Shown here piece after piece: positions 2,434 through 52,407 of a DNA stretch of 59,104 nucleotides; within the stretch, counting starts at the first letter, position 1; every line of letters begins with the position of its first letter. A model generated the notes under the pieces. That model was given only the letters and a program-made list of their open reading frames with translations. It was not told where the DNA came from and did not search any database. The stretch comes from a virus. The stretch is taken from the IMG/VR virus record IMGVR_UViG_3300044995_000110, positions 1-59,104 of that record; one strand, given 5' to 3'. A program made the translations under genes and the position numbers.

Positions 2434-3586
2434 CAACCAAAATTTGGATGAACGCCTGAATTTGCCAAGTGCCAGCGGCATAGAGCGCATAGCTTTGTGC
2501 CCTGGCTCATGGCATGCCGAAAAGAACCTGTCCCCCACAACAAGTGATGAGGCGGCTTCTGGCACACGGATTCATGCCGCTTACGAAGGTCAAGATGTTG
2601 GGCTTCGTGAAGGCGAGGATTGGGTGCTGGCCGAGCTTATTCAGCACACGGAGGAACTTTGCCAAAGGCTGGGCTTTGTTGGTGACGAGACTCGTGAAAT
2701 ACGCGAGTCTCGTCTTTGGTATGAAGCAACAGAGGGCAGGCCAATCCCAGAGCGCATCTTTTCTGGAAAGGCCGACCGAATCTATGTTTCCGGGCGCCGA
2801 GCCTTAATCATTGATGCCAAGACTGGCTACAGCGGGGCAGAGGAGGCGTCACGCAACTGGCAGTTGAGAGCACTGGCTGTTCTACTCAAGCAAAATGTGG
2901 ATGTGGACGAAGTGTATGTTGCCATCATCCAGCCAAGGGTAGAGCCTTCAGTGTCTGTTGCCTGCTATGACAGGGCTGCGCTGCAGCAGGCTGAAACCAG
3001 CATTTTGCAGGTCATTGAGAATGCCATGCGGCCAGATGCCCCGCGAATCCCAGGCTCGCCGCAGTGCGACTATTGCCGTGCTAACAGTGCTTGCCAAGCG
3101 CGTGTTTCTCATGCGCTGCTAGCAACCACCAGCTTGCCAGCTCATCCCAATGCTTTAACACCAGAGCAAATTGCACAGTGGCTTCCCAAGATTGCATTTG
3201 CCGAAAAGGTTTTTAGGGACATCAAAAAACTGGCCATTGATTCGATTGCTGTTGCGTCCGGCGTCCCCCAAAATGAGCGCGGCGAGTGGGACTGGACGGG
3301 CTTTGACTTTGATTCCCAGCCATCGGTGATTCCAGGCTACAGGCTGAAAAAGGGCGGCAAAATTAAGCATGTCGATGCCGGTATTGTATGGGCAAACATA
3401 GACCGCCTTGGCTTTCTTGAGCCAGAAGAGTTCGTGCGCTGTTGCGAAGTTTCGCAAGGGAAACTGAAGGAAATGCTCGCTCAGCGCCACGGTATTAAAG
3501 GAAAGGAACTGGCTCAAGCATTAGAAGATTGTTTGATTGGCGCCTTTACGGAAACCCAAAAGTCCCCAAGCCTGGAGGCCGAATGA
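2426..3586 (+). CDS. PD-(D/E)XK (Cas4/RecB-like, DUF2800-type) nuclease
   Basis: An N-terminal Cys context (LCPGSWH), D...IIDAKTGY (D-x-D-x-K type core) and a C-terminal Cys cluster (CDYCRANSACQ) give a Cas4-like 4-Cys arrangement. Confidence 0.7.
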   Translation: MPDNQNLDERLNLPSASGIERIALCPGSWHAEKNLSPTTSDEAASGTRIHAAYEGQDVGLREGEDWVLAELIQHTEELCQRLGFVGDETREIRESRLWYEATEGRPIPERIFSGKADRIYVSGRRALIIDAKTGYSGAEEASRNWQLRALAVLLKQNVDVDEVYVAIIQPRVEPSVSVACYDRAALQQAETSILQVIENAMRPDAPRIPGSPQCDYCRANSACQARVSHALLATTSLPAHPNALTPEQIAQWLPKIAFAEKVFRDIKKLAIDSIAVASGVPQNERGEWDWTGFDFDSQPSVIPGYRLKKGGKIKHVDAGIVWANIDRLGFLEPEEFVRCCEVSQGKLKEMLAQRHGIKGKELAQALEDCLIGAFTETQKSPSLEAE

Positions 3587-3984
3587 CACATCAATTTTGG
3601 GTAATGGCCGACCCTGTTCCGGCTCCTCGGCAAACAAGGCGAGACACCTGGAAGCCGCGCCCATGCGTTTTGCGTTACCGGACGTTCAAGGATGTCGTCC
3701 GCATGTCTTGCCCTAAGCCAATTAGCCAATGCCCCACCAGTCTTGAATGCATCTTTTTCATTCCAATGCCCAAAAGCTGGTCGGATAAGAAAAAAAAGAA
3801 AATGCTCAATACGCCCTGCCGAGTCCGCCCCGATGTTGACAACCTGCTAAAGGCAATTGCCGATGCGCTTTGGCCGGACGGAGATGGGATGATCCATGTC
3901 ATGATTGGCAAAAAGGTTTGGGCGGCCCCGGGGCAAGGCAAAGTGTATGTTTGTTTCCAAGAGGAGCCGCTTGAAGGCAAATGA
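3583..3984 (+). CDS. rusA: RusA-family Holliday junction resolvase
   Basis: The RPDVDNLLKAIADAL signature is present. The protein is about 133 aa. An ATGA overlap couples it to the upstream gene. Confidence 0.85.
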   Translation: MTHQFWVMADPVPAPRQTRRDTWKPRPCVLRYRTFKDVVRMSCPKPISQCPTSLECIFFIPMPKSWSDKKKKKMLNTPCRVRPDVDNLLKAIADALWPDGDGMIHVMIGKKVWAAPGQGKVYVCFQEEPLEGK

Positions 3985-4769
3985 AAAAGCAATACTTCGA
4001 CTTTTACCCCCAAGACTTCTTAGAGGGCACGGCGGCAATGTCAGATGAGGAGGTTGGCTGCTATATCCGACTGCTCTGCCACCAGTGGCTTTTAGGCAAG
4101 GACGGCTTGCCAGCAAGCCAAGATGAAATCATGGCCCTTATTAAGCGGCCAACCCCTATCCCTTCTGCCGTTATGGCCAAGTTTCAAAACATCAATGGCC
4201 TGCTTAAAAACCAACGAATGGAAATTGAGCGTGACAAGCAGTTGGCGTATCGCCTTTCGAGGAGAAAGGGCGCTGTGGCAAGGTGGGCCAAGAGAAATGC
4301 GCAGCAGAAAAACCAAGACAACAAGGAGGCAAAGTCCGAGCCTTTATCTCAGCCAGAGGATCACAAGCCCACCATTGAGCAATCATTATTTGACAATGGT
4401 GTTTTTGTTTTGACTTCTGAGGATGCGCCCAAGGCCAAGAGCAAGACAGCCAGGCTTAACGAGATTGCAAAAAGAATCTTGAATAAGATAAACTCATTGT
4501 GCGGCAAGTCATTCCGGCACGTCGAGTCTAATTACAAGATCATACGGAAAAGGCTGGAGGAGCCAGGAGTTACCGAGGAAAACGTGATGTGGATGCTCGA
4601 ACACAGATGGAGGTTGTGGCGCGGAACGGAAATGGAGCAGTATTTTTGCCCCCAAACGATCTTTCGTGAAAGCAAGTTTGACAATTACTTGGCCGCAGCC
4701 ATGTCGGAAGCGACTAAGCGGCCTCGAACGCAGGAAGAAGAAATTAAAATGTTGGAGTCGATGAAATGA
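3981..4769 (+). CDS. Replication protein with a DUF1376 (YdaU-like) N-domain and a conserved phage C-terminal domain
   Basis: YFDFYPQDFLEGTAAMSDEEVGCYIRLLCHQW is the DUF1376 pattern. The C-terminus reads FRHVESNYKIIRKRLEE...FCPQTIFRESKFDNYL. It sits directly upstream of dnaB. Confidence 0.75.
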   Translation: MKKQYFDFYPQDFLEGTAAMSDEEVGCYIRLLCHQWLLGKDGLPASQDEIMALIKRPTPIPSAVMAKFQNINGLLKNQRMEIERDKQLAYRLSRRKGAVARWAKRNAQQKNQDNKEAKSEPLSQPEDHKPTIEQSLFDNGVFVLTSEDAPKAKSKTARLNEIAKRILNKINSLCGKSFRHVESNYKIIRKRLEEPGVTEENVMWMLEHRWRLWRGTEMEQYFCPQTIFRESKFDNYLAAAMSEATKRPRTQEEEIKMLESMK

Positions 4770-6133
4770 CTAAGACAAGCAAGGGCACGTTTTCTCAAGT
4801 GGTCAAGCTTGACAATTTGCCTGCTGTCCACAGCGCAGAGTGCGAGCGCAATGTGCTTGCGGCAATGCTTTCCAACCCCGCAGATTGCATTGACGATGCT
4901 GCTGAAAAGCTCACCAGAGAAGATTTTTTTAACCCGTGCCACCAGGTTTTGTTTTCCGCACTTTTGGACATGCGAAACAGCGGGAAGCCCATCGACGCGA
5001 CTACTGTTTACCGCTACCTAGCAGATCGCCAACTTGCAGACGCAGCGGGTGGGGCGGCTTTCTTGGGCGAACTTTCTGCGAGCGTCATACCGACTATCAC
5101 GCTAGCAAGCCATATCGAGTCAGTCAGGAGCAAGGCCGTGCTGCGCCGCATGGTTCAGGCCTCGGCACAAAACATTGTCGATTGCTTGGAGCGGCAACAT
5201 GAGGCGGATTCCGTGGTTGTTGAGTGTGAGCAACGAATTTTGGCTGTTGGGAATCAAACCATTGGCTCCACGATTATCACGCCTGTGGAGGGGCTTAACC
5301 GCACGTTCAGGGCTATGGAAGAAGTTAACGCCGCCAATGGCAACGGACTAAGAGGCCCGTCCACGGGATTCCCTGAGATGGACAGAATGACCAAAGGATT
5401 CCGCCCCAAGGGGTATAGCGTTGTGGGGGCAAGGACCAATGTGGGCAAATCGGCAATTGGGCTTACGTTTGCTTACAATATGGTTACGGCAGGCGATCCG
5501 TGCGGGATTTTTTCCCTAGAAATGACTGTAGAGGCTATGTGGTCAAGGCTTTTGGCAATGGAAACTGATATTGATGTGGAAAAAATCGACAGCGTGAGAC
5601 TTTCTAACAGCGACTACGATAAGCTGGCTGTGGCGTCAGACAAGATGAAAGACTGGCCTTTGCCTATTGCGCAGCGCCGTGGGGCAACCTTGGCGCAGGT
5701 TACAGCTACGGCTAGGCGGATGGTGAAGCGTTTTGGGATCAAGGTGTTTATTGTTGACTACCTGCAAAAAATCCGAGTCCCCGGCGTCAAGGACAAAAGG
5801 TTGGAAGTTTCTGCCGCATCCGAAGGATTGGCCTGCTTGGCAGAGGAACTGAATATCCACGTTTTAGCCTTGGCTCAACTGAGCCGCGATGTTGAGAAAG
5901 AGGACCGCTATCCACGGCTTTCCGACCTCAAGGAATCAGGCGACATTGAGCAAGATGCCGACTTCGTAGCCTTGCTCCATCGCAAGATTCTTGATGACGA
6001 TAAGATGTCCTTATTTGGGAAGCTCAACATTGCCAAGCAGCGTAATGGGCCAACAGGAATCATTCCTGTGGTGTTCAATCACCGAACTACAAGGTTCACC
6101 CAAGACACACGCTCTGAAATACCCGACCTCTAA
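4766..6133 (+). CDS. dnaB: Replicative DNA helicase DnaB
   Basis: The N-terminus reads PAVHSAECERNVLAAMLSNP and Walker A is GARTNVGKSAIGL. VDYLQKI, LALAQLSR and NIAKQRNGPTG follow. The protein is 455 aa. Confidence 0.9.
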   Translation: MTKTSKGTFSQVVKLDNLPAVHSAECERNVLAAMLSNPADCIDDAAEKLTREDFFNPCHQVLFSALLDMRNSGKPIDATTVYRYLADRQLADAAGGAAFLGELSASVIPTITLASHIESVRSKAVLRRMVQASAQNIVDCLERQHEADSVVVECEQRILAVGNQTIGSTIITPVEGLNRTFRAMEEVNAANGNGLRGPSTGFPEMDRMTKGFRPKGYSVVGARTNVGKSAIGLTFAYNMVTAGDPCGIFSLEMTVEAMWSRLLAMETDIDVEKIDSVRLSNSDYDKLAVASDKMKDWPLPIAQRRGATLAQVTATARRMVKRFGIKVFIVDYLQKIRVPGVKDKRLEVSAASEGLACLAEELNIHVLALAQLSRDVEKEDRYPRLSDLKESGDIEQDADFVALLHRKILDDDKMSLFGKLNIAKQRNGPTGIIPVVFNHRTTRFTQDTRSEIPDL

Positions 6134-11856: not shown

Positions 11857-12729
11857 ATGTTTGGCTTTTTCAAGAAACCCAAAGCGGCCCCAAGGCTTGA
11901 GGAGTTAAAACTTCCTGAAGTTAATAAATACCTGGAAGAATATCTCAAGCAGGGCGAGCTTCAGCCGAAGCTTCAGGACTTTGCAAACAAGCTGAACACT
12001 GGCTATCGTGAAAGCCTAGATAGCGCAATTCCTGGACTTTTGGATCGTCTCAATCGGGCTGGGCAAACCACCGACTCCTATCTGCGAGGCGAGATTCCAA
12101 AAGATGTCCGTGATGCCATCATCCGTGGAAGCGTGGCGCGCTCAATCAGTGGTGGTTATGGTCCAGACAGCCTGATGGGGAGAAATTTAACCTCCCGTGA
12201 CCTTGGCTTAACAAGTATGGATTTGATGAGCCAGGGATTTGCGCGCCTTGGCAACGAGCTTAATTGGAGCCAGGCACTGACCCCCGCCATCGCGCAGAAC
12301 ATGATTTATGATCCTGGAACCATCATGCAGCGGCGTGACAATGAGGCCATGACCAACCTCAACATCCGCAACCAAAACAAGCAAATTGATTTTGCCAACA
12401 GCCAGCGGAAATCGGGTTTCAGCAGGCTGCTTGAAAGCACCATAGGCAACATAGTAAGCACGCCATTCAACTTTTTGAATAACTCTTTGGGGGTTGTGCA
12501 GCAGATACCGCAAATGGCTGCTGGTGCTGCCATGTCTTACTTGACGCCAACTCCTAGATTTTGGGGCAACAATGTGGGTGGGGTTGGCGGGATTGGGCTA
12601 GGCTCTTCTTATGGCTATTTTGGCCAGGCACCGAGCGCCTTTGGTGGCAGCCCGCTAGGACTTGGCTCTAACTTTTTGGGGAACATGTTTAACCCAACGG
12701 CACCTCGCGCCTTGCCCTACTATTACTAG
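11857..12729 (+). CDS. Hypothetical virion (internal?) protein with a Gly-rich C-terminus
   Basis: A 290-aa ORF with an AAAGGAAA SD region upstream. The tail is Gly-rich (GGVGGIGLGSSYGYFG...). Confidence 0.7.
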   Translation: MFGFFKKPKAAPRLEELKLPEVNKYLEEYLKQGELQPKLQDFANKLNTGYRESLDSAIPGLLDRLNRAGQTTDSYLRGEIPKDVRDAIIRGSVARSISGGYGPDSLMGRNLTSRDLGLTSMDLMSQGFARLGNELNWSQALTPAIAQNMIYDPGTIMQRRDNEAMTNLNIRNQNKQIDFANSQRKSGFSRLLESTIGNIVSTPFNFLNNSLGVVQQIPQMAAGAAMSYLTPTPRFWGNNVGGVGGIGLGSSYGYFGQAPSAFGGSPLGLGSNFLGNMFNPTAPRALPYYY

Positions 12730-12741: not shown

Positions 12742-14289
12742 ATGTCGCTAGGCCAGCAACTCGTCAGCATGATTGGGAATGACAGGCAGTTTGATATGCC
12801 TGACCCAGCGCTTATAACAAGACAGGTTTTGGGATACAAGGGTGCTTTTGACGACAACCGCCGTCTTTCCATGCAAGAGCGTCAAATGATGCTTCAGATG
12901 GAAGAACAAAAGCGCCGCCAACAGCTAGAAGAGCTTATGCTGCCGCTGAGGATGGCAGAAATTGAGGCGGAAACAGAATACCGCCGCAGCCAAATTGAAT
13001 CTCAGAAATTGGCCGCTCAAAAGGTGGCTGAGGAGCTTAAGTATCAGCCAATTGTCAATGACTTTATCATTAGCGTTTCCAATGCGACGCTTAGTGACAT
13101 TGACTCTATCCAAGTCCCCTCAAATTTGCCACCCCATCTTACTCAGAAGTTGGCCGACATGAAAATATCGCGGAAACATGGCCTGCTCAACGAGGAGAGC
13201 CAAAGGCAGGCTCTTCGTTTGAGCAACCAGAAGGCCGAAGCCGGTATTGCTGCACGAGAGTATCTTTCCCAAAATGGGGTGAATGATGTTGACAAGCTAG
13301 ACGACACTACGGCCATCAGATACGCCCAAGAGTTAGAGAAGGAACAGCGGCAACGGCAAATGCTGATGGCGCAAAAGAAGGCCGATACACAGCTTGAGCA
13401 CTACAATCTCGAAGAAGATTTGAGGGCTACCAACGCCCAACTAAAAAAGTATTACCAACAGCGCGATGCGATTCAAAGGGAAATGCAGGAGAAAAATCCG
13501 AACATTGGCCCAGCGGCATCTTCACTGTTCAAGGATGAAAGAATCAATGCTATCAACAAAAACATCATGGAGCTTGAGGATAGGAGGATCAAGCTGCATT
13601 CAGACCTAAACAAGAGAAAGGAAATATTGGGCTATAATCGCATTGACGAACTTACCGGGCAACCAATTCCTACACAAAACAAAGCTGGTGCAGACTCTCA
13701 ACCAAGCGCATCCCCATCGGTGGAGGTGTCACAGACGGTAAACCAGCCGTTGCAGGACGAGCCTTTATCAGATGAGGAGGCCTCCAATGGCCAAGTTATT
13801 CGTGGGCTTAGCAGGCCAGCAGGACCAAAATTTATCCCTGAAGAAAGTCCAATGGCCACGGAAATCTCATCGGATTCCTTGGCCTCCAAATTCCAACAGG
13901 CAAGAGACTTGCTGGAGCGCGGGAAAAACAACCATGCCTTTTTTGTGGGAGGCAAGATTGCAGCAGCCTCCGCCTTGGCGGAAGCTATCCGTGCTAACAC
14001 TACACCAGAGCAATTCAGAGAGCTTCAAAAAATGCCAGCCCAAGAGCGCATCGAAGCGGCCAAGCGATTCATGAAGTCGGTTGCCCCGCCATTGTCCATG
14101 AGCAAGTCTTTGGACGAGAAGATGGCCGAATCCCAATTCGACGTTGCCCAAACCATCAAAAATGTCACAGGGCTTGGCGGCCTGGGCATGGCCAAGGGGC
14201 CGGCCATCAGGCCAGTGTCAAGATGGCCATTTGACGAAAATCAGATTGATTGGAACGAATTTAACGCCATTGTCAGTTCAATTCGATGA
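12742..14289 (+). CDS. Coiled-coil internal virion protein candidate
   Basis: This 515-aa ORF has AGGAG upstream and long charged Q/E/K/R heptad-like stretches. It overlaps the giant gene start. Confidence 0.7.
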   Translation: MSLGQQLVSMIGNDRQFDMPDPALITRQVLGYKGAFDDNRRLSMQERQMMLQMEEQKRRQQLEELMLPLRMAEIEAETEYRRSQIESQKLAAQKVAEELKYQPIVNDFIISVSNATLSDIDSIQVPSNLPPHLTQKLADMKISRKHGLLNEESQRQALRLSNQKAEAGIAAREYLSQNGVNDVDKLDDTTAIRYAQELEKEQRQRQMLMAQKKADTQLEHYNLEEDLRATNAQLKKYYQQRDAIQREMQEKNPNIGPAASSLFKDERINAINKNIMELEDRRIKLHSDLNKRKEILGYNRIDELTGQPIPTQNKAGADSQPSASPSVEVSQTVNQPLQDEPLSDEEASNGQVIRGLSRPAGPKFIPEESPMATEISSDSLASKFQQARDLLERGKNNHAFFVGGKIAAASALAEAIRANTTPEQFRELQKMPAQERIEAAKRFMKSVAPPLSMSKSLDEKMAESQFDVAQTIKNVTGLGGLGMAKGPAIRPVSRWPFDENQIDWNEFNAIVSSIR

Positions 14290-17200
14290 AACAACAAGAA
14301 ATTCCCAACAATTTTTTAGACAGCGAGGATAATGGCAGCAGCATGGCTACGCCTATGCCGGATTGGCTTAAGCCAACGGCCTTGTCCAACGGCCAGGGCG
14401 AGAGACTAAATAGCGCCGGAGGAGATTACCAACTTCGGCTGGGCGAATTTAGGGCGCGTTCTGCTGCCCTTGACCTTGTTAATTCAGCGGCAAGCGGGCA
14501 AGACCCCAAGGGCATGTTTGAGGCTTATAAGAATGGGATTCCCACAAGTGGCGGCAAACTGATTTACGACGCTGACAGTCTGTCGCCTGCTTATGCTGTG
14601 GCCTCTTCCATCTTTAATGGCAAGGAAAAGCTATTGTTCCAATATACGCCTCTTCCCCCAGGCGAAGAAAGCAAAGGGGGGAACAGTGTTGTCAAGCGCT
14701 TCCGTGTTATAGGAGACGATCCATTTAAGGCATTGGATCAGGCCCGGAGGGCTGGCGTCTTGCCAGACAGCGATTTCGCTTCGCTTTCCAAGTTTTACCA
14801 GGCCAATTACGAAAGCACCCAAAAGACACAACAAAACATCGACAAGACTTTTGGGGAAATGAAGTGGTATGATGCCTTTGGTGTTGGGTTAAGCCAAGGC
14901 TTGGGCACTTGGGGCGATCTGCCGCAGTTGTTGAATGGGCTTCAACAGCGTGCGTTCGGCAATGAAGAAGAAAAAAGGCGGCTTGCCGAACAAAAAATCC
15001 AGGAACTTCAAATCAACGCATTTGGCCGCCCGCAGCAGAGATTTGGGAAGGGCGCAGAGACATTATACTCACTTGGCAATGAGGCTGGCGTCATGACCCC
15101 CATGTTTGTTGGGTATGTTGTCCCGCCTGCCGCCATTGTCACTATGCCGTCTTACCTTACCGTGCAGGTAGCACGGAGCTACAACAGCGGATGGGATGAG
15201 GCGCTGCAGCGAAAATACCAGGATGGCGCCAATCTAAATGATGCCATTTCTTATGCCGATATAGCGGCAAAGGCTACGACCAGCATTGAGTTTGGATCGG
15301 AGTTGGCGGAGTCACTACTACCGTTTGCAAGGCTAGCCAAAGGCGTGCGCGGCGCGGTGCGTCCTTTTGCTGAGATTGGGGCGCAGGGCCTTGCGGGGGG
15401 CACTAGCGAAGCCATTTCGCAAATGGGGCAAAACCTTGTATTGGGCAAACCAATTGCCGATGATGTTGGCCAAAGCTTTGTGGTTGGTGGGGCACTTTCT
15501 GGATTGGCCTCTGGTCTTAATCAGATGCGGTCGGAGAGGGATTGGCGCAAGCAATACAAAGCATTAACCACTTCGGATGATAACGTAGCTGCTTACCTTT
15601 GGGCAAATGCAAACGCCGAAACCGTAGTGGCTGTCGATAAAAATGGCAATCCCGTCCAACTCAAAGACCTTCCAGCCGAGTTCCAATTTCAAATTTCAAA
15701 AGACATGGTGCGCCAGTCTAAGTTGGCGCAGTCGTCTGGCGTCACCGTCGAATCTCTTGAATCGCTTTCTCCGCTCAAGCGTGTCGCAGCATTAAGGGAA
15801 TTAAGTGTTGATGACTTGGCCCGGATCGCGGCAGCGCGTCAAATTGAGGTAAGCGCTAGCGGGAATTTCACTCAATCGGAACTAGACAAAAGCCTTGAAG
15901 AAGAACTGCGTCGCCGTTCAGAAGAAGAGGCGGGCTGGAGCGATCAAGAGTTTATCTTGAAGATGGGGACTGCTCGCTATGAAATTTTGTCCAACAACCC
16001 CGACTGGGCGGCGGCTGAGGAGAAGGCTTCAGCCAAGCGCCGTGCGGCCAGTGAGGCGGCCCAAGCTGCCTCAGCGGTAGGTCCGGCTACGCAAGCCGCC
16101 TTTCAGCAAAAGGCGGAAGAACAAGGTGCGCAGGCCAACCAACAAGAAGCCATCTCCCAGCCAATTCAGGCTAAAGATCAGAAGAAGCAAGAGATGGCAA
16201 CCAATGCCGACTTGGGCTTAGTTGCGCCTATTGCAGAAGAAGAGGCGGATGCCTCAGAAGCAGCGCAACCCGTTGTGCCACAAGAACCGTCGGCAACGCA
16301 AAGCCCTCAAGAAGCAAAAGAAGAAAAACAAAGCGCGGCGGCACGACCTGTTGCACCACCTCAACCTGTTGCACAAGAATCTTCCCCAGTTGCTAAACCA
16401 GCAGAAGAACAGGCCCCAGCACCTCAACCACGATCCGAGCAAAATGATGAGGGGATAGCTAGCACTGCTGCACCCGCTCCATTGGCCCCCCAATCTCATT
16501 CTCCGGCTCAACAACCACAAGCTCAAAAGCCCAAGCCACCCATGACTGGGTGGGTCACTACGAATGATTTGGATAAAATTTTGGGCACCTTAGCCGACGC
16601 CATAGCTTCTGAATATGCTCCTGATTTAAGAATGCGGATGTTTGGCGTGTATAACACAGATGAAGTTATGTCGGCTGTCCAAGACTTGCTTAAAAATGGA
16701 TGGGTGTATGACAAATCGAAGGGGCGGATGGCTAACCCCCAAAACTGGGGCGAAAAGCCTGTGGATGGCCTAAAGAGGATTCGTGGTGGGGATTGGTCCC
16801 CAGCCCCGGCAATACAAAAAATTTTCCGAGCCCCACAATCTCAGGCTGCCGCCGAAGCAGCAGCCTCAAATCAGCAGGAACCCCAGCAACCAGTTTCACA
16901 AGCAGAAAGAGTCGAGACCAATGAGCAAGCCGGAACGTCATCATTACCTCAACAAACTCAGAAACCTCAAGAATCTGACTCCAGAGGAGATCGAGGAGTT
17001 GCACGAAGAGGGGTGCCGGTGGCGAGTGACGCCAGCCAGGAAACGCAAGGGCAAGCACAACAAGCAACAGAAGAACGCCCCCAGCCAAGAACTGGATTAA
17101 GCGTAACCACGCCAGTCGCGGGACCGAAAGAGCAAGCTGTCGATAAGAAGAAACAGGCGCCCAAGCCACTGACACCCGAAATTGAGACCCCATCCCCAAG

Positions 17201-20200
17201 CAAGGCGAGGGGCGAGCGCAGCCCCAGGAAAACAAAGCAGGCCAACGAAAAGGCCGCAACATCCAAGATTGCCGACATTCTCGATGGGAAAATTAAACAA
17301 CATGGCAAAGGGCAGAGAACTATCAAGCTTGCCGAAGCGCAAAAGCAAGAGCTTGTGGCATTTCTCTTAAAAGCGCGTGAATTTGCCGACAGCATTGCAT
17401 CAAACCCCACTACGTTCACGTGGTTTGATGAGGCAACCAAGTTGCAGGCCATTGATGATGCAGCCTACCAGGCCGCGCGCCGAGCCTTGCTTTGGATCGA
17501 GCAATACGGCTCATTGGAAGCAAAGAACGAGCAGGGACGCGGATTTGCGTGGGTGAACTACATGAAGCCAACACTGCGCAAGTATGCTGCTAGTGAAGCC
17601 AATGCGCCCAAGATTAGCCTAGATGCCCAGCCTGTAGAAAAAGCATCCAATCAAAGCGATGGGGATACCAATGTTGAAGATGGCTTGGGCGTTGGTGAAG
17701 AAGAAGTTGGGACTGAAGGCGATGACATTAACGAGCCGCCCATTCAACAGTTCACAGAGGATGGCGAGCCAATAGAAAGTGGGGCCGAAACGCTGGACAA
17801 TTCCATTGCCACTCCCGAAAGCCCAGAAAGGGCAAAGATTCGTCAAGAGATTAATGACGAGCTAGAGAAGGTGGCAGCGCAGACTAAAGAGAAAATCAAT
17901 AATTCCTCTATTCCTGCAACAATCAAGAATGCGCTCATCAATTTAGTCAACGACGAGCTTCGCCAGTCTGACATGCAGGCGATTTGGGAGTTCATTGAGA
18001 CCAACAGGGAGCAGCAGCCTTTTGTTGCTGACATTCTTCAGGAATGGAAAGAAAGGCGTGATGAGCTTGCCCGCTTTGCCAGTAAAGGCAGGAGGAAGAT
18101 CGAAGGGTTGCAATGGAGCATGGCCAATGACACGCAACTCAAGGTGCGCAACGTCATCCAGCGCCTTGCCAGAGTTTTGCTGCCAGAAGGCATTGATATT
18201 GCCTGGCTTAACGATCCCACTGATCCTGCCGCCATGTTTGTCGAGGTTGGGGAGTCGAACGTCGTTTTTGCCAACCTGTTCCGCTTGGCTGAAACCTTTA
18301 ATGAACTTGGCAACATGGGGGCCAAGGAAAAAGAAAAAGCCTTCGAGGAATACGTTAGGGCCGTTCTTGCCGAAGAAATGCATCACCTTGCGCACGACCA
18401 GGTGATGATGAAGCTTTGGGAGGAGTCTGGCACTGAGATGTCTTATGAGGAGTTTGTGGCCGAACATGGTCGTAGGCTCATTGATGAAATGGGCATAACC
18501 AAGGCGGAGCAATTCGCCGCCAGATACCTTCAGGCATCCCGTGTTTTGACATTACGCAACTCGTCTGGCGAGATTATTGGCTTTGCCAATGCCGATAGCG
18601 GCAGCGTGGGTGACGTCCTTTGGATTGACAATTTCTTCCCTGAGTTTGCCGCCGAATGGAGCGCGCATTCTCGTGGCCAATTTTCTGCGCCAGAGGCTTT
18701 TGATCTGGCTGGAATGCCTACTCTGAAGCAGTTTTTCTATCGCTTGGCCAATCTCCTGAAAACTTGGATGGCCAAAATACGGGGCAACTTCCCTGAGCTA
18801 CGCGAACGTCTTGCCGCCATTGATGAGGCTTTGAAAGCCGTGGAGAACGCCCCTAAGTTGGCCGAGGAGATGTCTCGCCAATCGCTTCAGGAAAGAATGG
18901 CGCTGCCATCCGCTCAAAGACGGGCCTCTCGTGGTAGAGTTTCTGACAAAGAGCTGATGGACAAATTTGCCGATCTTGAGGCGGTTGGATACAAATTCAT
19001 TGCCAAGCTACAAGGCGACAATGGGGCCATTTTGGCGATAAATAAATATGGCACAAAAGTTGTCCTTAAACGCGGACGCGGCCTAGAACAACGGCTTGAA
19101 GAATTTTTTGCCCACAAAATTCATGCCTTGTGGCAAACACTTTTTAATGACGTGAAAGATATTGGGGTGCTTGCCCCATCAGTAAAACTTATTAGCAAAT
19201 ACGGCTCAAATATAAGCGGCGAATGGAACATTGTAAGGCCAATCAGTGATACGGAGTGGTTTGATAATGAGTTGGTGCGCGCAGAATGGATTGAGAAACA
19301 ATACATTGAAGGCCCAACATTAGGGGAATACATTAAATCCTTGGAGCAACTTCCAGAAAGCGAGGCAAAATTTAAGCTCGATTCCTTGAAAGCTGCGCTT
19401 CGCAGTGGGTATTGGGTGGACCTGCTTCTGCAGAACCTTGATGGTGGCGGGGATAATTTGAGCAACATCATTGTTGATGATTCATTCTCATACGTCCCTG
19501 TGCCTTATCGCGTTAGCATGAGTGGCGCGCTTGGGTATAAGTCTAATGGCGAACCTAAAAGCAAATCAGAACTTGCATGGTCGGACAAGGAAGTGTTTGC
19601 CTTGTTGCCGGATAACGTCAAAAAGATGTTTTTGCGCAAGGGCTTAGATATACCCAGCATACCGGGGCTGTCCGATCTTTATGGGGAGATGAGCATTGAG
19701 GAGCTAAATGATGGCCTTGCCAAAATCCTGTGGGAATTTCATGGCGCATTTAGAAAAGTAATGGAAAATAAAAGCCCTAGATTGCGTGCAATTCTGGGCG
19801 TGCTGAAGAATCGCATGGCCGTCATTCAGAACGCATTTGGCGATACTTCCTTGCGGATGAAGAACTCAAAGAATATGACGGCAAATGAGTTCGTGGATGC
19901 CGCATGGGATGCCCGCAAGCAGCTTTTAGAAGTCCCTCTTGTCCGTGATGAGGCGGGCCTTGTCGCACAAGATCATCCTGTTTTCCAAGGCAATACGACG
20001 GCATATTATACATGGGTAGCCAATGGACGCCTGCTTAATCCTTACGGTGGTCCAAGCTTGCTTACGGAATCTCAGTGGCGGGCTGTTCGCACCCCGAACT
20101 TTATGGAGTGGGCTGGCGGTGACTGGCGTATTGGTGAGGGGAATGTTATTCTTGACCAACTGACTGGCGAGCCAAAGGTTTTTTATCATTCAACCACGGT

Positions 20201-23200
20201 GCCAGAGCTAAAGTCTCTTGCGCCAGATAATAATGGCCTTTACTTCTTAGCTGAAGATGAGCGGCACGGGAGAGTCATCTCCAATCAAACGCAAAGTCAG
20301 CTCAATTCGCCAATCGTTTCCCTGCCATTGTTCATGCGCGCTAGGAAGTTTTTGGACGCCAAGAATTACAACGAGATTAAGGCGGTCATTGATTACGGAA
20401 GAAGTGGGGCCGCTGACAAATACAGCCAGACCACAAAGGATGAGTTTGAGAAAACTGCGGACCTGATTGAGTTGCAAGCTAAAATATTGTTACGCGCAGA
20501 ACAACAAAATAATCCAAACGCCACAATTGAAGATGCTTGGAGCAAGATTAAAAATGTTTGGGGCTTGGTCGAAAATCCTGGGTTTTCTACGATCCTCAGA
20601 GAAATGGGCTATGACGCCATTAAAATGAGCGAGGAAATATTCCCCAAATTTGGGGATGTGCCAACTTGGGGCGTTTTTTACTCCAACAATATTAAGCTGG
20701 CTGGAGATGAAGCAATTTTTGAGGGTGGGCAAAAAGGGCCGTTGCCAGGCGATCCAAATACTGGGATATTTTCGGAAAGCCCCAACATCCGCGCCTCGCG
20801 TGGGCGCAAAGGAAAAGCAAAAAATGAAAACAAAACTGCTGAAACTGAAGCAAGGACAGACATATCTGGAACACCCGGAACACCAGAGGCGGCAAGAGGA
20901 AGTGAAACGCCTTTTGCGAAGCTGTCCCGAGAACTCGCCAGAATTTCAAAAGAGCTTGGCGCTGATGAAGGCGACCATGAAGCGCAAATAATTTTGGGTG
21001 AATATGCCATTCGCCAGATGATGGAGGATGGGCGAATCAAGAAATTGCCTTGGCCCAAGAAGCCTTCGGGGAGTGGGTTTGAGCACGTTGTCCAGATTCG
21101 TGGGCGGGAAGTTTACAAGTTCACCAGCAATAGCCAAGGGGTGCCTTCAGGCTATCGGGCAGTCCCAGTAGCGACCATCAACGGCATCCCTAGGGTTGTT
21201 ACTGGGAATGCGACGCCTTCGGAATATCTGGAGCGGTGGGACACATTCAACCATGTCTTTGGCGGTGTTGCGCCGGAAGTCACGTTTGAGGGCGCTGCCG
21301 AGCGGCCAGACGGGACCATTGCCTTGGTGGTCAAGCAGGATTTTGTGCCTGGGGATGAGCCTACCATTCAGGAGATTTCTGATTGGCTAAAAAGCGAGGG
21401 CTTTGAGCCTGTGGGGACGGCAAGGGCGTGGTTTCGCCAATCTGATGGCGTTGCCTTGGCCGACGTAAAGCCAGACAACTTCAGGAAATACAAAGGGCAA
21501 ATCATTCCTCTGGACATCCCCATTACAATTCTACCGAGGCTTGACGCAGCAAGAAGGGCCACAAGAGGACGCACTAACCCCAAAGAATACGCCTTGGGCA
21601 AGATGCGGCGGCAGAAAACACACGTCGAAGAAGCCTTCGACAGCTTGCGCGCCAATATAGAGGCCATTAAAGATGCTGGCTGGAACCGCATCAAGTGGCT
21701 TGTGGTTCAGAAGGCATTTAACAAGCAGTATGCCCTGCACGAGATGGAAAAGACTTTCAACCAGATTGTGCGTGGGCGCGGACGCGAGCTTCTTTCTGGG
21801 AAAGAGAGTGCAGCCAAGTTTGCGCAAGTTGCCACTGATGCTTATTCCATGGCGCACGAAGCCTTGTGGCTTGGCATCCCCGTGATGAAGGACGGAGCTT
21901 TCCAGGTGGATAACCGGGTGCGTGGTGTTGCCATGATATTTAAGGACATCCGCGACAAATATGGTGAGGATGGGCTAAGAGACTTCATGGGATATATGGC
22001 CGGGCGGAGGGCCAGCGAACTCAAGGCCATTGCTGAAGCCGAGCTTAATTCACTTTTGGCATCTAGTTCTCGCGCAGCCAATATTTTCAATGACATGCAA
22101 AAGCTTCGTCGCGATCAGCACCTTGAGATTATTGGGCTGAAAGCAGAAGATGCCAAGCTGCATACCGATGCAGAGCTTGTTGCTTTGGCTGCCATGACGC
22201 GGCTTGAAATCCCGCGCCGCGAAACCCTTTTCAGCAAGGCTGAGATTGCGGCGCTTTTGGCCATGAAGCGTGAAGGCTTTGAGGAAGCATTTGCCGATTA
22301 CCAGGCCAACGTGCGTGGCGTCATGGATTTTGCGGTGGCCACGGGACTAGTTTCGCCGGAGCTGCGCGATCACCTTGAAAAGCTGCACACACAGTATGTT
22401 CCGTTCTATCGGGCAATTGATCCGATGGCAGGCGAGTTGTATGGGCCGCCGACATCCAAGAGAGGCTTTGCAGACCAGCGCAGCGGCATCCGTCGAATCC
22501 TTGGGGGCACAGAGCCGTTGAATGATCTATACGAAAACATCGAGCGCAACATGGTCCACATGATGGTGGCGGGCATTAAAAACATAGTCATGCTCCGCGC
22601 AGTGGCTATGAGTGACGCCATCAACGCCAAGCAGAGTGCGGAAGCTAAGGCGAAGAGGGATGCCGCAATTAAGGAGGCTGAGGCGGAATTTGCCAAGATT
22701 CAATCTGACCTCAAGAAGAGGCTGGCGAATGGCGAGATTAGTGAGCCAGACTATGAGCGGCAAAGGGTTCAGGCAGAGCAGGCTTTGGCAATCCGCAAGG
22801 ATGAAATCAATGAACAAATGGCGCCCGATGGTCCGCAGTTCATGGTCCCTGTTTCTCAAAAAGAAAAAGTGGCCATCTCCAACTGGGCCATCATGCGGGA
22901 GCTTGAGAAACAGGGAGTGCCGGAGGAGCTTTCGCAATATATTGACCCCTCTGTTTGGGTGAACATCTATGCTATTGGGCGTCCACAAAAGGGGAGCGAC
23001 ATTGTTTCCTTTATGAAGGACGGCAGGGTTCAGTATCGCCGCATTGTGGATGACCTGGTTTGGGATTCTTTTGAGGCTATGAGCCGAGGGGCCATAGGGG
23101 CTGGGAATCCTTTTATGACGCTGGCTCGCTTTGCGCGGAGACTTTTCCAGAGCAGCATTACGATTACTTTGGAGTTTGTGGGGGCAAACGCCATGCGCGA

Positions 23201-24752
23201 CACAATGGCATCGTGGCTACAAAACAAGGATATGGCTGTCCCTATTATAGAAACAATGCGTGGGGCTTTGGCGTGGGCCAGCAACCGCCAAGTGGTAAAA
23301 AAGCTTATGGGGCGGGATGGCGAAATTAGCGACCTAGACCGCATTTTCTTGGCAGGGGCCGGCGACCCTTCAACTTTCCGCCAAGAAGGCGTAACTAGGG
23401 AAAGCATTACTTCTGTCACGCGCCCAAGGATTTCTAGAATCATCAAGGCTGACAACCCGCAGGCACTTTGGCAGGCTCTTGAGGCCTTGCGGCGTGCTGG
23501 CAACGCTACGCTTCAAGCCGCCGAGACTTTTGGCCAAGCCACAGAAAGTGCCACCCGCACGCAGGTGGCCCTAAACACTCTCAAGAGGACAGGCGACTTA
23601 GTGGAGGCGGCGTGGGCTTACCGTGAGGCAACCACGGACTTCTCGCTTTCTGGTAGTAGCAAGATGATTCAGTTTTTGGCGCAGACTGCCCCATTCTTTA
23701 ATGCGGGGATGCAGGGCTTAATCCGCATGGGCCGCGCTATGAATACGAGAACATTTTGGACGCGCGGCTCCATGCTTTTTGCAATCTCCACATTGCTCGC
23801 ATTGCGGAACTGGGATGATGATGACTACGACAAGCTGCCTGACGACATTAAGGACCGCTATTGGGTTTATCTCACAGGCAATAAGGGAGACGCGGATCGA
23901 ACCATGATCCTCATTCCCAAGCCATTTGAGATTGGAACCATGTTGGGAACAGTGCCAGAGCGCCTGACGGTAGCCTTCATGAAGAAGGCAGAGGGTGAGT
24001 TTGGCAAGGCGGATATGAGGGAGTTAACCTACCGCTTAGGATACCTAGCAACCAACATGCTGCGCCTTAACCCAACACCACAGCTCGTCAAGCCGATCCT
24101 TGAATTGCATGCTGGCCCTGGCGGCTGGAAGTCTTACTTCGAGCGTGAAATTGAGCCGGCCAACGTGCGGGCCTTGCCACCGGAAGCAAGGTATTATCCA
24201 ACCACGCCCTTCACAGCAAGAGGCATTGGCGAGAAGCTTGGAGTTAGTCCGCTAAAAGTGCAGCATTTTGTCGAAGGGTATTTCGGGACAATGGGCACCT
24301 ACGCCATGATGGCTGCAGATGCTATCTACAAGAACTTTGCTGACGTGCCGCCGCCCCCTAAGCAGGAGTGGTGGGAAAATCGAGTTTTGGGTGTTGGCCG
24401 ATTCATCAAGAACCCACAAAATGTAAGAACTAAATACCCTGACTTATTCTACAAGATGGCCGATGAAACTCAGGCACTTGCCCGTCGCGTGCGCCAGGTT
24501 GCTGAGGCCATGGACTTAGAAGAAACCAATCGTCTCTTGAAAGCGGACCCTATGGTGCTTGAGCGCAGCAGGGTGCTTGGCAAATATGAGAGAGATCTGA
24601 CAAATATCAACAAGTTGATCAATCAGATTTGGGCAAGCCGCGAGATGACGCCCGAAGAGAAGCGCGACCAGTTGAATCGTTTGTATCAGCTAAAAACACA
24701 GCTTCAGCGAGAAGGTCTGTCAATAGGGAAAAAGCTGCAAGCGCAAGAATAA
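14286..24752 (+). CDS. Giant (3,488 aa) polyvalent / internal virion-type protein with kinase-like and ART-like modules
   Basis: This is a single uninterrupted ORF. A kinase-like module (nt about 21060-21540) has GSGFEHVV, VYKF, ADVKPDNF and IPLD. A second kinase-like region (nt about 18990-19520) has VVLKRG ... LLQNLDGGGDNLSNIIVDD. An ART-PolyVal-like module (nt about 20100-20800) has EPKVFYHSTT, GLYFLAED, GYDAIKM, VFYSNNIKLA and NTGIFSESPNIRAS. A P/Q/A/E low-complexity linker spans nt about 16000-17300. Confidence 0.9.
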   Translation: MKQQEIPNNFLDSEDNGSSMATPMPDWLKPTALSNGQGERLNSAGGDYQLRLGEFRARSAALDLVNSAASGQDPKGMFEAYKNGIPTSGGKLIYDADSLSPAYAVASSIFNGKEKLLFQYTPLPPGEESKGGNSVVKRFRVIGDDPFKALDQARRAGVLPDSDFASLSKFYQANYESTQKTQQNIDKTFGEMKWYDAFGVGLSQGLGTWGDLPQLLNGLQQRAFGNEEEKRRLAEQKIQELQINAFGRPQQRFGKGAETLYSLGNEAGVMTPMFVGYVVPPAAIVTMPSYLTVQVARSYNSGWDEALQRKYQDGANLNDAISYADIAAKATTSIEFGSELAESLLPFARLAKGVRGAVRPFAEIGAQGLAGGTSEAISQMGQNLVLGKPIADDVGQSFVVGGALSGLASGLNQMRSERDWRKQYKALTTSDDNVAAYLWANANAETVVAVDKNGNPVQLKDLPAEFQFQISKDMVRQSKLAQSSGVTVESLESLSPLKRVAALRELSVDDLARIAAARQIEVSASGNFTQSELDKSLEEELRRRSEEEAGWSDQEFILKMGTARYEILSNNPDWAAAEEKASAKRRAASEAAQAASAVGPATQAAFQQKAEEQGAQANQQEAISQPIQAKDQKKQEMATNADLGLVAPIAEEEADASEAAQPVVPQEPSATQSPQEAKEEKQSAAARPVAPPQPVAQESSPVAKPAEEQAPAPQPRSEQNDEGIASTAAPAPLAPQSHSPAQQPQAQKPKPPMTGWVTTNDLDKILGTLADAIASEYAPDLRMRMFGVYNTDEVMSAVQDLLKNGWVYDKSKGRMANPQNWGEKPVDGLKRIRGGDWSPAPAIQKIFRAPQSQAAAEAAASNQQEPQQPVSQAERVETNEQAGTSSLPQQTQKPQESDSRGDRGVARRGVPVASDASQETQGQAQQATEERPQPRTGLSVTTPVAGPKEQAVDKKKQAPKPLTPEIETPSPSKARGERSPRKTKQANEKAATSKIADILDGKIKQHGKGQRTIKLAEAQKQELVAFLLKAREFADSIASNPTTFTWFDEATKLQAIDDAAYQAARRALLWIEQYGSLEAKNEQGRGFAWVNYMKPTLRKYAASEANAPKISLDAQPVEKASNQSDGDTNVEDGLGVGEEEVGTEGDDINEPPIQQFTEDGEPIESGAETLDNSIATPESPERAKIRQEINDELEKVAAQTKEKINNSSIPATIKNALINLVNDELRQSDMQAIWEFIETNREQQPFVADILQEWKERRDELARFASKGRRKIEGLQWSMANDTQLKVRNVIQRLARVLLPEGIDIAWLNDPTDPAAMFVEVGESNVVFANLFRLAETFNELGNMGAKEKEKAFEEYVRAVLAEEMHHLAHDQVMMKLWEESGTEMSYEEFVAEHGRRLIDEMGITKAEQFAARYLQASRVLTLRNSSGEIIGFANADSGSVGDVLWIDNFFPEFAAEWSAHSRGQFSAPEAFDLAGMPTLKQFFYRLANLLKTWMAKIRGNFPELRERLAAIDEALKAVENAPKLAEEMSRQSLQERMALPSAQRRASRGRVSDKELMDKFADLEAVGYKFIAKLQGDNGAILAINKYGTKVVLKRGRGLEQRLEEFFAHKIHALWQTLFNDVKDIGVLAPSVKLISKYGSNISGEWNIVRPISDTEWFDNELVRAEWIEKQYIEGPTLGEYIKSLEQLPESEAKFKLDSLKAALRSGYWVDLLLQNLDGGGDNLSNIIVDDSFSYVPVPYRVSMSGALGYKSNGEPKSKSELAWSDKEVFALLPDNVKKMFLRKGLDIPSIPGLSDLYGEMSIEELNDGLAKILWEFHGAFRKVMENKSPRLRAILGVLKNRMAVIQNAFGDTSLRMKNSKNMTANEFVDAAWDARKQLLEVPLVRDEAGLVAQDHPVFQGNTTAYYTWVANGRLLNPYGGPSLLTESQWRAVRTPNFMEWAGGDWRIGEGNVILDQLTGEPKVFYHSTTVPELKSLAPDNNGLYFLAEDERHGRVISNQTQSQLNSPIVSLPLFMRARKFLDAKNYNEIKAVIDYGRSGAADKYSQTTKDEFEKTADLIELQAKILLRAEQQNNPNATIEDAWSKIKNVWGLVENPGFSTILREMGYDAIKMSEEIFPKFGDVPTWGVFYSNNIKLAGDEAIFEGGQKGPLPGDPNTGIFSESPNIRASRGRKGKAKNENKTAETEARTDISGTPGTPEAARGSETPFAKLSRELARISKELGADEGDHEAQIILGEYAIRQMMEDGRIKKLPWPKKPSGSGFEHVVQIRGREVYKFTSNSQGVPSGYRAVPVATINGIPRVVTGNATPSEYLERWDTFNHVFGGVAPEVTFEGAAERPDGTIALVVKQDFVPGDEPTIQEISDWLKSEGFEPVGTARAWFRQSDGVALADVKPDNFRKYKGQIIPLDIPITILPRLDAARRATRGRTNPKEYALGKMRRQKTHVEEAFDSLRANIEAIKDAGWNRIKWLVVQKAFNKQYALHEMEKTFNQIVRGRGRELLSGKESAAKFAQVATDAYSMAHEALWLGIPVMKDGAFQVDNRVRGVAMIFKDIRDKYGEDGLRDFMGYMAGRRASELKAIAEAELNSLLASSSRAANIFNDMQKLRRDQHLEIIGLKAEDAKLHTDAELVALAAMTRLEIPRRETLFSKAEIAALLAMKREGFEEAFADYQANVRGVMDFAVATGLVSPELRDHLEKLHTQYVPFYRAIDPMAGELYGPPTSKRGFADQRSGIRRILGGTEPLNDLYENIERNMVHMMVAGIKNIVMLRAVAMSDAINAKQSAEAKAKRDAAIKEAEAEFAKIQSDLKKRLANGEISEPDYERQRVQAEQALAIRKDEINEQMAPDGPQFMVPVSQKEKVAISNWAIMRELEKQGVPEELSQYIDPSVWVNIYAIGRPQKGSDIVSFMKDGRVQYRRIVDDLVWDSFEAMSRGAIGAGNPFMTLARFARRLFQSSITITLEFVGANAMRDTMASWLQNKDMAVPIIETMRGALAWASNRQVVKKLMGRDGEISDLDRIFLAGAGDPSTFRQEGVTRESITSVTRPRISRIIKADNPQALWQALEALRRAGNATLQAAETFGQATESATRTQVALNTLKRTGDLVEAAWAYREATTDFSLSGSSKMIQFLAQTAPFFNAGMQGLIRMGRAMNTRTFWTRGSMLFAISTLLALRNWDDDDYDKLPDDIKDRYWVYLTGNKGDADRTMILIPKPFEIGTMLGTVPERLTVAFMKKAEGEFGKADMRELTYRLGYLATNMLRLNPTPQLVKPILELHAGPGGWKSYFEREIEPANVRALPPEARYYPTTPFTARGIGEKLGVSPLKVQHFVEGYFGTMGTYAMMAADAIYKNFADVPPPPKQEWWENRVLGVGRFIKNPQNVRTKYPDLFYKMADETQALARRVRQVAEAMDLEETNRLLKADPMVLERSRVLGKYERDLTNINKLINQIWASREMTPEEKRDQLNRLYQLKTQLQREGLSIGKKLQAQE

Positions 24753-24875: not shown

Positions 24876-25253
24876 TCAGATATGTTTGGAATCGGCATTG
24901 TCTTTGACAGCATAGCCGCTGTCTTGCCGCTGGTGGTTAACTTGGTTTTTCTTAACGTAGGCTTGATAAACGTCATCTGCTCCCATGCCCAAAACTTGGG
25001 CAATAGAGACGAGAAAGTGGAACAGGTCCACCACTTCCACACGGGCGTTTTGAACATCGAAGGTCTGGTATTTAGCCCACCATTTCCATGGCACAGAATC
25101 GACTAGTTCGGCAATCTCCTGGGACATGGCGCGGGTGTAGTTCAAGATCCACTGGACCCGCTCCTCATCGGTAAGGCCAGCCGCATTGATGCCAATGCGC
25201 CGGTTAAGTTGGTCTTGCAGTTGGAATATTTGTTCTAGTTTGTCTTGGTTCAT
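24876..25253 (-). CDS. All-alpha NTP pyrophosphohydrolase (dimeric dUTPase/MazG-like)
   Basis: EIAELVDSVPWKWWAK...VEVVDLFHFLVSIA matches the E..E...W..W / E..D..HF pattern of dUTPase_2/MazG-like enzymes. Confidence 0.65.
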   Translation of the reverse strand: MNQDKLEQIFQLQDQLNRRIGINAAGLTDEERVQWILNYTRAMSQEIAELVDSVPWKWWAKYQTFDVQNARVEVVDLFHFLVSIAQVLGMGADDVYQAYVKKNQVNHQRQDSGYAVKDNADSKHI

Positions 25254-47954: not shown

Positions 47955-47987
47955 GACCCAATTAGCCAAGAAATAAGACGTCTATTT

Positions 47988-48275
47988 ATGGACACACTCG
48001 AACAATGGCACCGCAGCCCCGACAAATTGGCCTTTATTGAGGCCATGAACAGTCCAGCCGTCAAAAGAGCATTTGCGCTGGTGGCGCAAATTGGCCTAAG
48101 CCCAGACCTGCAGGCCAAAACCGATGAGGAGCATCGAAACGCCCACATTGCGCAACGCGGATTCTTTAATTGCCTTCAAGTTTTCAACCACTTGGCGGGG
48201 CCACCTCCAGAGCCTCAACTCCAATCCCCCGCACCATTTGACTTTAAGGAACCAGAGCCAACGCCCGATAACTAA
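47988..48275 (+). CDS. Hypothetical protein
   Basis: A 95-aa ORF between the portal and scaffold genes. Confidence 0.55.
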   Translation: MDTLEQWHRSPDKLAFIEAMNSPAVKRAFALVAQIGLSPDLQAKTDEEHRNAHIAQRGFFNCLQVFNHLAGPPPEPQLQSPAPFDFKEPEPTPDN

Positions 48276-48325
48276 TATCCCCCGCCTTTTCTTAGATAAA
48301 ATCAAAGCCAAAACACGAAAATCCT

Positions 48326-49597: not shown

Positions 49598-49630
49598 TCC
49601 ATCCAACACGACAACAACGAAAGAATTGCC

Positions 49631-50008: not shown

Positions 50009-50010
50009 CG

Positions 50011-50256: not shown

Positions 50257-50272
50257 TCAGCAAAAAAAATTG

Positions 50273-52401: not shown

Positions 52402-52407
52402 CCCGCC

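Follow-up and report, generated by a model that had tools for sequence, protein, structure and literature searches.

A 3,488-residue cysteine-free phage protein predicted to carry kinase and ADP-ribosyltransferase modules on a conserved LPD38 chassis

What kind of protein fills more than a sixth of a phage genome as one uninterrupted gene? The question is raised by the IMG/VR virus record IMGVR_UViG_3300044995_000110, analysed here over its full length of 59,104 nucleotides (hereafter the window), in which a single open reading frame (ORF) at 14286..24752 on the plus strand starts with ATG and encodes a giant protein of 3,488 amino acids (aa). A previous sequence-only reading, made by a model without database searches, had pointed to a 10.4-kb ORF occupying 18 percent of the genome, and the gene indeed takes up 10,467 of the 59,104 nt (17.7%). 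It had further proposed an injected polyvalent protein with two kinase-like modules and one ADP-ribosyltransferase (ART)-like module, and all the motifs that it quoted are found in the translation where it had placed them. Judged from its sequence, the giant protein is a phage-type polyvalent protein with a combination of domains that is new among its relatives. In addition, we consider it fairly probable that its conserved C-terminal region, here called the chassis, serves the particle, and that the N-terminal cargo is delivered with the DNA at infection. All features of the protein described below lie on the plus strand.

Kinase-PolyVal, ART-PolyVal and LPD38 domains share this one ORF, and polyvalent proteins are recognised by the presence of at least two disparate domains of their repertoire. 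A Pfam search of the whole protein yielded LPD38 (aa 3178-3362) and Kinase-PolyVal (aa 2310-2410), both over their cut-offs, and nothing else above threshold, which supports the earlier assignment to the polyvalent class. PHROGs returned one unnamed family (aa 2903-3470) and NCBIfam nothing, while sequence searches of the PDB with all three thirds of the protein and with ART and chassis profiles gave nothing significant. A DarB-like methylase-helicase was considered and rejected, as Pfam and NCBIfam find neither a methylase nor a helicase in the giant protein; an N4-like virion RNA polymerase was likewise discarded, with no Pfam and no PDB sequence match to it anywhere along the chain. The protein resembles the polyvalent proteins described by Iyer, Burroughs, Anand, de Souza and Aravind (2017, J Bacteriol 199:e00245-17) in its many disparate domains, its ART with a His-Tyr-Asp (H-Y-D) triad, its kinase without a C-lobe and its LPD domain, and that class is also found in phage late-gene context. 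It differs from them in that about 40% of its length matches no described domain, and in that no zincin peptidase, the usual processing domain of the class, is detectable. The kinase of Iyer et al. was found mainly in phages and prophages of Verrucomicrobia-Chlamydia and Bacteroidetes, which is a further difference.

The Kinase-PolyVal module, at 20883..21554 (aa 2200-2423), consists of a helical lead-in followed by a kinase core devoid of a C-lobe. The Pfam profile PF18762, with a cut-off of 27 bits, scores 33.6 bits on the whole protein and 38.7 bits on the segment, over profile positions 56-153 of 160. With aa 1301-2440 as the query, an exhaustive phmmer search retrieved 440 proteins at E<=1e-3, and one group of these, covering aa 2165-2420, comprises stand-alone proteins of 200-264 aa together with domains within other giants. 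Two of the stand-alone homologues, P0001 (67% identity) and P0002 (39%), are both Kinase-PolyVal by Pfam. When metagenomes were scanned with the kinase module, no closer phage relative emerged, and a word-indexed homologue search with aa 1301-2440 and with aa 1552-1860 gave nothing.

The kinase motifs that had been quoted, GSGFEHVV (aa 2262, nt 21069), VYKF (aa 2276), ADVKPDNF (aa 2392) and IPLD (aa 2407), prove to be the catalytic ones. The alignment with 12 homologues keeps GxGxEH (E2266), the beta-3 Lys (K2278), ATPxEYLxR, Q2351 in the last N-lobe strand, DxKPxNF (D2393, K2395, N2398) and the metal-binding Asp D2410, and the module stops 13 residues past this Asp, at a short border motif that is described below. 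Iyer et al. (2017) describe a polyvalent kinase clade that has lost the C-lobe and is marked by a Glu ahead of strand 2 and by a Gln in the final strand of the N-lobe. Since both the catalytic and the family-specific residues match these features, the kinase call of the sequence-only reading was correct, and aa 2200-2423 is predicted to be a C-lobe-less Ser/Thr/Tyr kinase of the Kinase-PolyVal family.

Immediately upstream lies the ART-PolyVal module, at 19998..20789 (aa 1905-2168), which is made up of an N-terminal adaptor (aa 1913-1960), a core bearing H1968, Y1986 and D2110 (aa 1960-2141) and, within the core, a helical insertion of ~100 aa (aa ~2000-2100). Profile searches domain by domain, which the earlier reading had suggested as a check, gave a divided answer here: the Kinase-PolyVal match is above the cut-off with its catalytic residues aligned, whereas the ART-PolyVal match (PF18760; cut-off, 31.2 bits) is below it, although it still spans profile positions 3-135 of 140. 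The low score is explained by the ~100-aa insertion, which splits the domain and is common to a subgroup of ART-PolyVal homologues. In fact, a second group of phmmer matches, reaching down to E 1e-30, covers aa 1898-2148, and Pfam detects ART-PolyVal above the cut-off in 10 of the 10 partners tested.

The MAFFT alignment of the module with members of the family runs from end to end. The lead-in, LLAPNGKPSNLTxEQYKLVRTPxFKxWFGDW in the family, reads LLNPYGGPSLLTESQWRAVRTPNFMEWAGGDW in the giant protein; the first strand, vvYHGT in the family, reads VFYHST and contains H1968, which is invariant; GxYF corresponds to GLYF (Y1986), and YDG to YDA, in which the D2110 column is at least 90% conserved. 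The tail, NQIKLADGTNTTFDxxNPDIRF in the family, becomes NNIKLAGDEAIFEGG...SPNIRAS. The active site of ART-PolyVal proteins has been described as a His in strand 1, a Tyr in strand 2 and an Asp in strand 5 (Iyer et al. 2017), and this triad is complete in the giant protein (H1968, Y1986, D2110). Of the stretches that had been quoted as ART-like, EPKVFYHSTT (aa 1962), GLYFLAED (aa 1984) and GYDAIKM (aa 2108) hold these three residues; VFYSNNIKLA (aa 2130) and NTGIFSESPNIRAS (aa 2158) follow them.

An AlphaFold2 (AF2) model built on this alignment is confident, with a mean predicted local distance difference test score (pLDDT) of 82.3 and a predicted TM-score (pTM) of 0.79. Foldseek comparison of the model with the PDB gave weak matches. 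The top one (aa 1905-2165) is 9k3a chain B, from the pre-ejectosome of cyanopodophage A-4(L), with E 6.6e-3 and probability 0.96; below it, the matches are mostly of the ART fold (MbcT, ParT, NatT, Xre-RES, the typhoid toxin A subunit PltA and tankyrase), with E from 0.09 to 4.4. Against the viral library BFVD, the same model gave 37 matches at E<=1e-3, many of them named ART-PolyVal. Homology, alignment, AF2 modelling and Foldseek thus bear out the ART-like module, and aa 1905-2168 is assigned, from sequence and model, to a divergent ART-PolyVal member that itself scores under the Pfam cut-off.

The second of the two proposed kinases is a different matter. Module b, at 18939..19985 (aa 1552-1900) and including the quoted stretch LLQNLDGGGDNLSNIIVDD (aa 1714, nt 19425), had been read as kinase- or PI3-4K-like, a call that could not be established: the module has no Pfam, PHROG or significant PDB match, is not a paralogue of the first kinase and is modelled poorly. 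Two homologues are available, an 81-aa fragment (P0038), found by exhaustive search, and a 297-aa stand-alone protein (P0151; 38% identity), found by profile search and likewise devoid of Pfam and PHROG matches; further searches of IMG/VR, JGI metagenomes and GTDB genomes yielded no others. Duplication of the first kinase was rejected as an origin, given that hhalign against the Kinase-PolyVal alignment returns a probability of 0.4%.

In the alignment of these three sequences, a Gly-rich loop (QGDNGA in the giant protein, GGSTGA in P0151) is followed, in kinase-like order, by VVLKRG (K1595), EEF (E1605/E1606), the hinge YIEGPTLGEY (aa 1673-1682) and QNxD...N (Q1716, N1717, D1719, N1727), the spacing between this Asp and Asn being atypical. 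Further on, RIDLGGAL of P0151 corresponds to RVSMSGAL, so that the Asp is replaced by S1744. A PDB search with the three-sequence profile gave two matches at E<=10, both weak (E 0.53) and both bacterial Ser/Thr kinases aligned at the hinge, EYIEGPTLSEYI. Structure prediction, which had also been proposed, gave a confident model for the ART module; for module b, the AF2 model on three sequences has a pLDDT of 39. Its first 70 residues are arranged as strand-strand-strand-helix, the order of a kinase N-lobe, and Foldseek returned E values that are all above 0.4 for this low-confidence model, which is noise. The kinase-like reading of module b comes from the collinear motifs and the two weak PDB matches, and by these the balance tips slightly towards a kinase-like fold. 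If so, the copy in the giant protein would lack the usual metal-binding Asp.

If the enzymes make up the variable part of the protein, the chassis is its constant one. The last ~1,000 aa, left without a call in the sequence-only reading, turned out to be a widespread conserved region, at 21639..24713 (aa ~2452-3476), detected by tblastn, BLASTP, PHROGs and IMG/VR searches. Within it lies LPD38 (PF18857), at 23817..24371 (aa 3178-3362), with a Pfam E value of 5.6e-30 and a score of 105.3 bits on the whole protein (105-108 over scans; cut-off, 27 bits) over profile positions 1-183 of 189. A tblastn search with aa 2441-3488 matched 35 phage records. In four cultured phages, namely Vibrio phage 1.232.O (gp28, 3,292 aa), Escherichia phage PTXU04 (gp25, 2,197 aa), Aeromonas phage phiARM81mr (p69, 3,190 aa) and Achromobacter phage CF418P1 (2,684 aa), a giant ORF stands last in the late block, and the matching region is its C-terminal end. 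These proteins resemble the present one in being encoded by a single giant ORF (2,197-3,292 aa) that terminates the late or tail block, in genomes of 56-62 kb, and in sharing the C-terminal ~850-1,000 aa, LPD38 included, at 25-30% identity; the boundaries of the common part given above come from BLASTP. They differ in cargo, which comprises ExoX-C, helicase, methylase and GNAT domains in 1.232.O and methylase and ddrB-ParB domains in phiARM81mr, while nothing in the PTXU04 protein is recognisable as a cargo domain, and their flanking genes show almost no similarity.

In IMG/VR, the chassis is present in at least 553 loci, mostly on contigs of 50-65 kb, with an identity of at most 32% among the matches listed. 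The 80 best chassis proteins include 10 with an ART and none with the kinase or module b. The chassis has no sequence resemblance to solved structures, those of ejection proteins included, and it contains a sub-threshold SHOCT-like motif at 22707-22766 of the window (aa 2808-2827; 19.8 bits against a cut-off of 27).

Some of what is known of LPD38 and of PTXU04, a podovirus, bears on the function of this region. LPD38 has been reported from phage-type polyvalent proteins only, for which packaging is predicted. For PTXU04, a dCas13d knock-down screen showed gp25 to be fitness-essential and needed for plaque formation, and its complementation failed through toxicity or interference. As gp25 is essential without any recognisable enzyme, an essential role probably resides in the chassis itself. 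We take a virion or ejection function, with LPD38 and the rest of the chassis anchoring the protein in the particle, as the most likely one.

The composition of the chain is as distinctive as its domains. The giant protein contains no cysteine in 3,488 aa, compared to 1.44% in the 40 other ORFs of the window (chance probability, ~1e-22). The four cultured relatives are equally Cys-free, and so are two ORFs of 290 aa (11857-12729) and 515 aa (12742-14289) that directly precede the giant gene on the plus strand. Among the 80 best IMG/VR chassis proteins, 57 are Cys-free and the overall Cys content is 0.014%; polyvalent proteins in general are Cys-poor (0.25%), and the work of Iyer et al. (2017) does not mention an absence of Cys.

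The N-terminal third also contains long low-complexity spacers. A disordered linker of ~430 aa rich in Pro, Gln, Ala and Glu (P/Q/A/E) had been proposed here, and the composition agrees with this; its continuity does not, as a folded island of 100 aa separates two stretches, one at 15996..16535 (aa 571-750; Ala 26%, Gln 15%, Pro 13%, Glu 11%) and a second, P/Q/A/E-rich one at 16836..17285 (aa 851-1000). Tandem DNA repeats were sought as the origin of the linker, and none were found. The island, at 16536..16835 (aa 751-850), has an ordinary composition and occurs twice in the kinase-bearing polyvalent protein P0131 (phmmer E 4.9e-9); it also gives a sub-threshold Pfam match to TGL (E 0.1, 12.3 bits against a cut-off of 23.7). 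The lack of Cys and the long spacers fit a protein that is threaded unfolded.

A third sequence feature marks the borders between modules. The hexapeptide R-A-[ST]-R-G-R was found three times by motif scan, as RASRGR at 18921..18938 (aa 1546-1551), RASRGR at 20790..20807 (aa 2169-2174) and RATRGR at 21555..21572 (aa 2424-2429), each at the C-terminal border of a module, and no other copy occurs in any of the six reading frames of the window. Their codons differ from copy to copy, and only 10 of 20,000 shuffles had at least one copy. The second copy occupies the place of the NPDIRF linker of other ART-PolyVal members, and RRASR occurs once apiece in three IMG/VR relatives. The RRAS and RRAT sequences look like a basophilic-kinase site, and the motif may be a processing or a phosphorylation site.

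The giant gene closes a plus-strand block that includes a PD-(D/E)XK nuclease, a DnaB helicase and tail-fibre-like genes, the latter recognised by PHROG matches upstream on the same strand, and this position agrees with that of its counterparts in PTXU04 and 1.232.O. Its ATG shares bases with the stop codon of the 515-aa ORF (ATGA). Pfam and PHROG scans gave no family match for either of the two upstream ORFs, which are candidate partner ejection proteins. The genes on the 3′ side are encoded on the opposite strand, and no terminator or promoter consensus was found there.

Taken together, these features suggest the following sequence of events. The chassis would place the giant protein in the particle as a part of the ejected core. 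Its cargo, the variable N-terminal two thirds with the kinase, the ART, a possible atypical kinase-like module (module b) and modules without detected relatives, would be threaded at infection through the tail and across the periplasm as an unfolded, Cys-free and spacer-rich chain. Once in the cytoplasm, and ahead of phage gene expression, the two enzymes would modify host proteins, the kinase by phosphorylation and the ART by ADP-ribosylation, with either defence proteins or the expression machinery as the targets. An injected counter-defence role, as proposed in the sequence-only reading, is a plausible function.

There are precedents for this logic, in which enzymes target the host as soon as infection begins. 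T4 Alt and the Dar proteins of P1 are packaged, and Alt is an injected ART. Phosphorylation by the T7 kinase is reported to disarm defences broadly (PMC13645617). P1 DarB, T4 Alt and T7 gp0.7 are alike in this respect and differ in their details: DarB is a methylase-helicase, which the giant protein lacks; Alt has an R-S-E triad, whereas the ART described here is of the H-Y-D type; and gp0.7, a member of another kinase family, is synthesised after entry instead of being packaged. The A-4(L) pre-ejectosome offers a large multidomain ejection protein with enzymes inside a podovirus capsid (9k3a chain B, 1,071 aa), although it has a TM-score of only 0.33 to the ART model and no sequence similarity to it. 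A lytic transglycosylase and an M23 peptidase are the enzymes assigned in that protein, and the matching alpha+beta domain, in the ejection protein gp28, was left without assignment; this domain may be ART-like.

Several observations weigh against packaging and delivery as described. There is no direct evidence for the presence of the giant protein, or of any LPD38 relative, in a virion; mass fingerprinting of PTXU04 virions identified only gp7, gp10, gp11 and gp12, so that gp25 was neither found nor excluded. In the window, Pfam and PHROG recognised no portal, capsid or terminase, the presumed head genes included, and the structural context consequently depends on the tail-fibre-like matches only. 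No peptidase domain able to process the giant protein was found. As to the enzymes, the ART module scores 13.4 bits (E 0.14) with the Pfam profile, and the near-invariant Gln of NQIK is replaced by Asn in the giant protein and in one other member. Moreover, as the PTXU04 homologue is essential, the main task of the protein may lie in structure and not in counter-defence.

This last point leads to the view that the giant protein serves chiefly as a structural component of ejection or of the internal core, a podovirus counterpart of T7 gp16 or of the A-4(L) pre-ejectosome proteins, with enzymes that are minor, redundant or inactive passengers. Such a role would account for a PTXU04 homologue that has no recognisable enzyme domain and whose knock-down abolishes plaques, for the chassis being the sole part conserved across relatives and for the lack of Cys, and the pre-ejectosome chain that heads the PDB matches of the ART model indicates that such folds sit in ejection complexes. 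However, the kinase and the ART retain all of their catalytic residues, which argues for selection on activity, and the chassis has no sequence similarity to solved ejection proteins. We regard a mainly structural role as unlikely, if not lightly dismissed, and it overlaps with the delivery model instead of excluding it. An unpackaged, late cytoplasmic multi-enzyme, which would modify host or phage proteins during assembly or exclude competing phages, is in our view improbable. The want of direct evidence for packaging in this clade would suit it, and homologues that stand alone, of 200-260 aa for the kinase and 297 aa for module b, imply that the modules can work free. Nevertheless, the gene ends a tail-fibre block and is coupled to Cys-free upstream ORFs, a clade-wide absence of Cys is difficult to reconcile with a cytoplasmic enzyme, and the confinement of LPD38 to phage-type polyvalent proteins predicted to be packaged speaks for the particle.

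It could also be asked whether a gene of this size is real, or whether it results from a chimeric assembly or from several genes fused through sequencing errors. Nothing was found in support of an artefact, which is prompted solely by the size of the gene and its many segments without relatives, and we consider it highly improbable. The frame of 14286..24752 is open throughout with zero internal stops, the longest ORF in the other frames across the gene is 189 aa, relatives of the chassis are regularly giant single ORFs of 2,200-4,200 aa, and the border motif recurs in one frame, kept in the protein but not in the DNA.

Packaging by the chassis and delivery of the cargo remain the preferred explanation. 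On one conserved chassis, essential in one characterised relative, such phages exchange very different enzyme cargo, here a kinase and an ART instead of the usual methylase-helicase. If packaging is true, the giant protein would be a tractable case of a phage that delivers protein-modifying enzymes before its own gene expression, and a source of relative-less domains to screen for anti-defence activity. A more ambitious reading joins several features, taking the border motif as a processing site or a site for the protein's own kinase, the avoidance of Cys and the P/Q/A/E spacers as a threading signature, module b as a new atypical kinase-like or pseudokinase family and the LPD38 chassis as a new ejection-complex protein. 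We find this conjunction rather doubtful. Under such a code of delivery and release, the border motif would free or activate the cargo modules after ejection. The absence of Cys and the border motif are simple sequence features, and they could help to spot ejected proteins or processing sites in other phages.

The remaining parts of the cargo have few relatives or none. The first ~550 aa had been left without a call, and this holds: the Gly/Ala-rich N-terminal region at 14286..15995 (aa 1-570), with a hydrophobic stretch at aa 267-296, has no match in Pfam, PHROGs, the PDB, phage tblastn or the chassis relatives. An acidic stretch (aa 1101-1175) lies beyond the two P/Q/A/E stretches and precedes module D, at 17811..18920 (aa 1176-1545). 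Neither aa 1001-1100 nor aa 1176-1545 has relatives in the Pfam, PHROG, PDB or chassis-relative sets, save for one weak match of module D to P0045 (aa 858-962). The motif EEMHHLAHD (aa 1362-1370) of module D invited a reading as a zincin metallopeptidase, which was rejected: it is not HExxH, the homologue reads EEFIHN at this place, and there is no Pfam match.

A few observations concern the rest of the window. The phage lies far from those described so far: megablast of the giant gene against phages gave zero matches, and there is almost no protein similarity to the neighbours of the chassis relatives. At 2366-6133, the PD-(D/E)XK/DUF2800 nuclease, a Phg_2220_C protein and the DnaB helicase lie directly 5′ of the tail-fibre-like genes on the same strand, an unusual order. 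The first gene past the giant one encodes a MazG-like NTP pyrophosphohydrolase (24876-25253, minus strand), and PTXU04 likewise encodes an NTP pyrophosphohydrolase a few genes past its own giant gene, on the strand opposite to it. The large ORFs at 45705-54027 (749, 423, 481/580 and 539 aa) have no family-level Pfam or PHROG match and are presumably the head and packaging genes. Two of them, of 580 aa (50364-52106, minus strand) and 481 aa (50547-51992, plus strand), overlap nearly fully on opposite strands, again with no family match. The 423-aa ORF (48326-49597) is Cys-free, has weak coiled-coil-type Pfam matches only and may encode a scaffolding protein. Finally, an endolysin-like ORF at 55380-55982 on the plus strand matches the peptidoglycan hydrolase of CF418P1.

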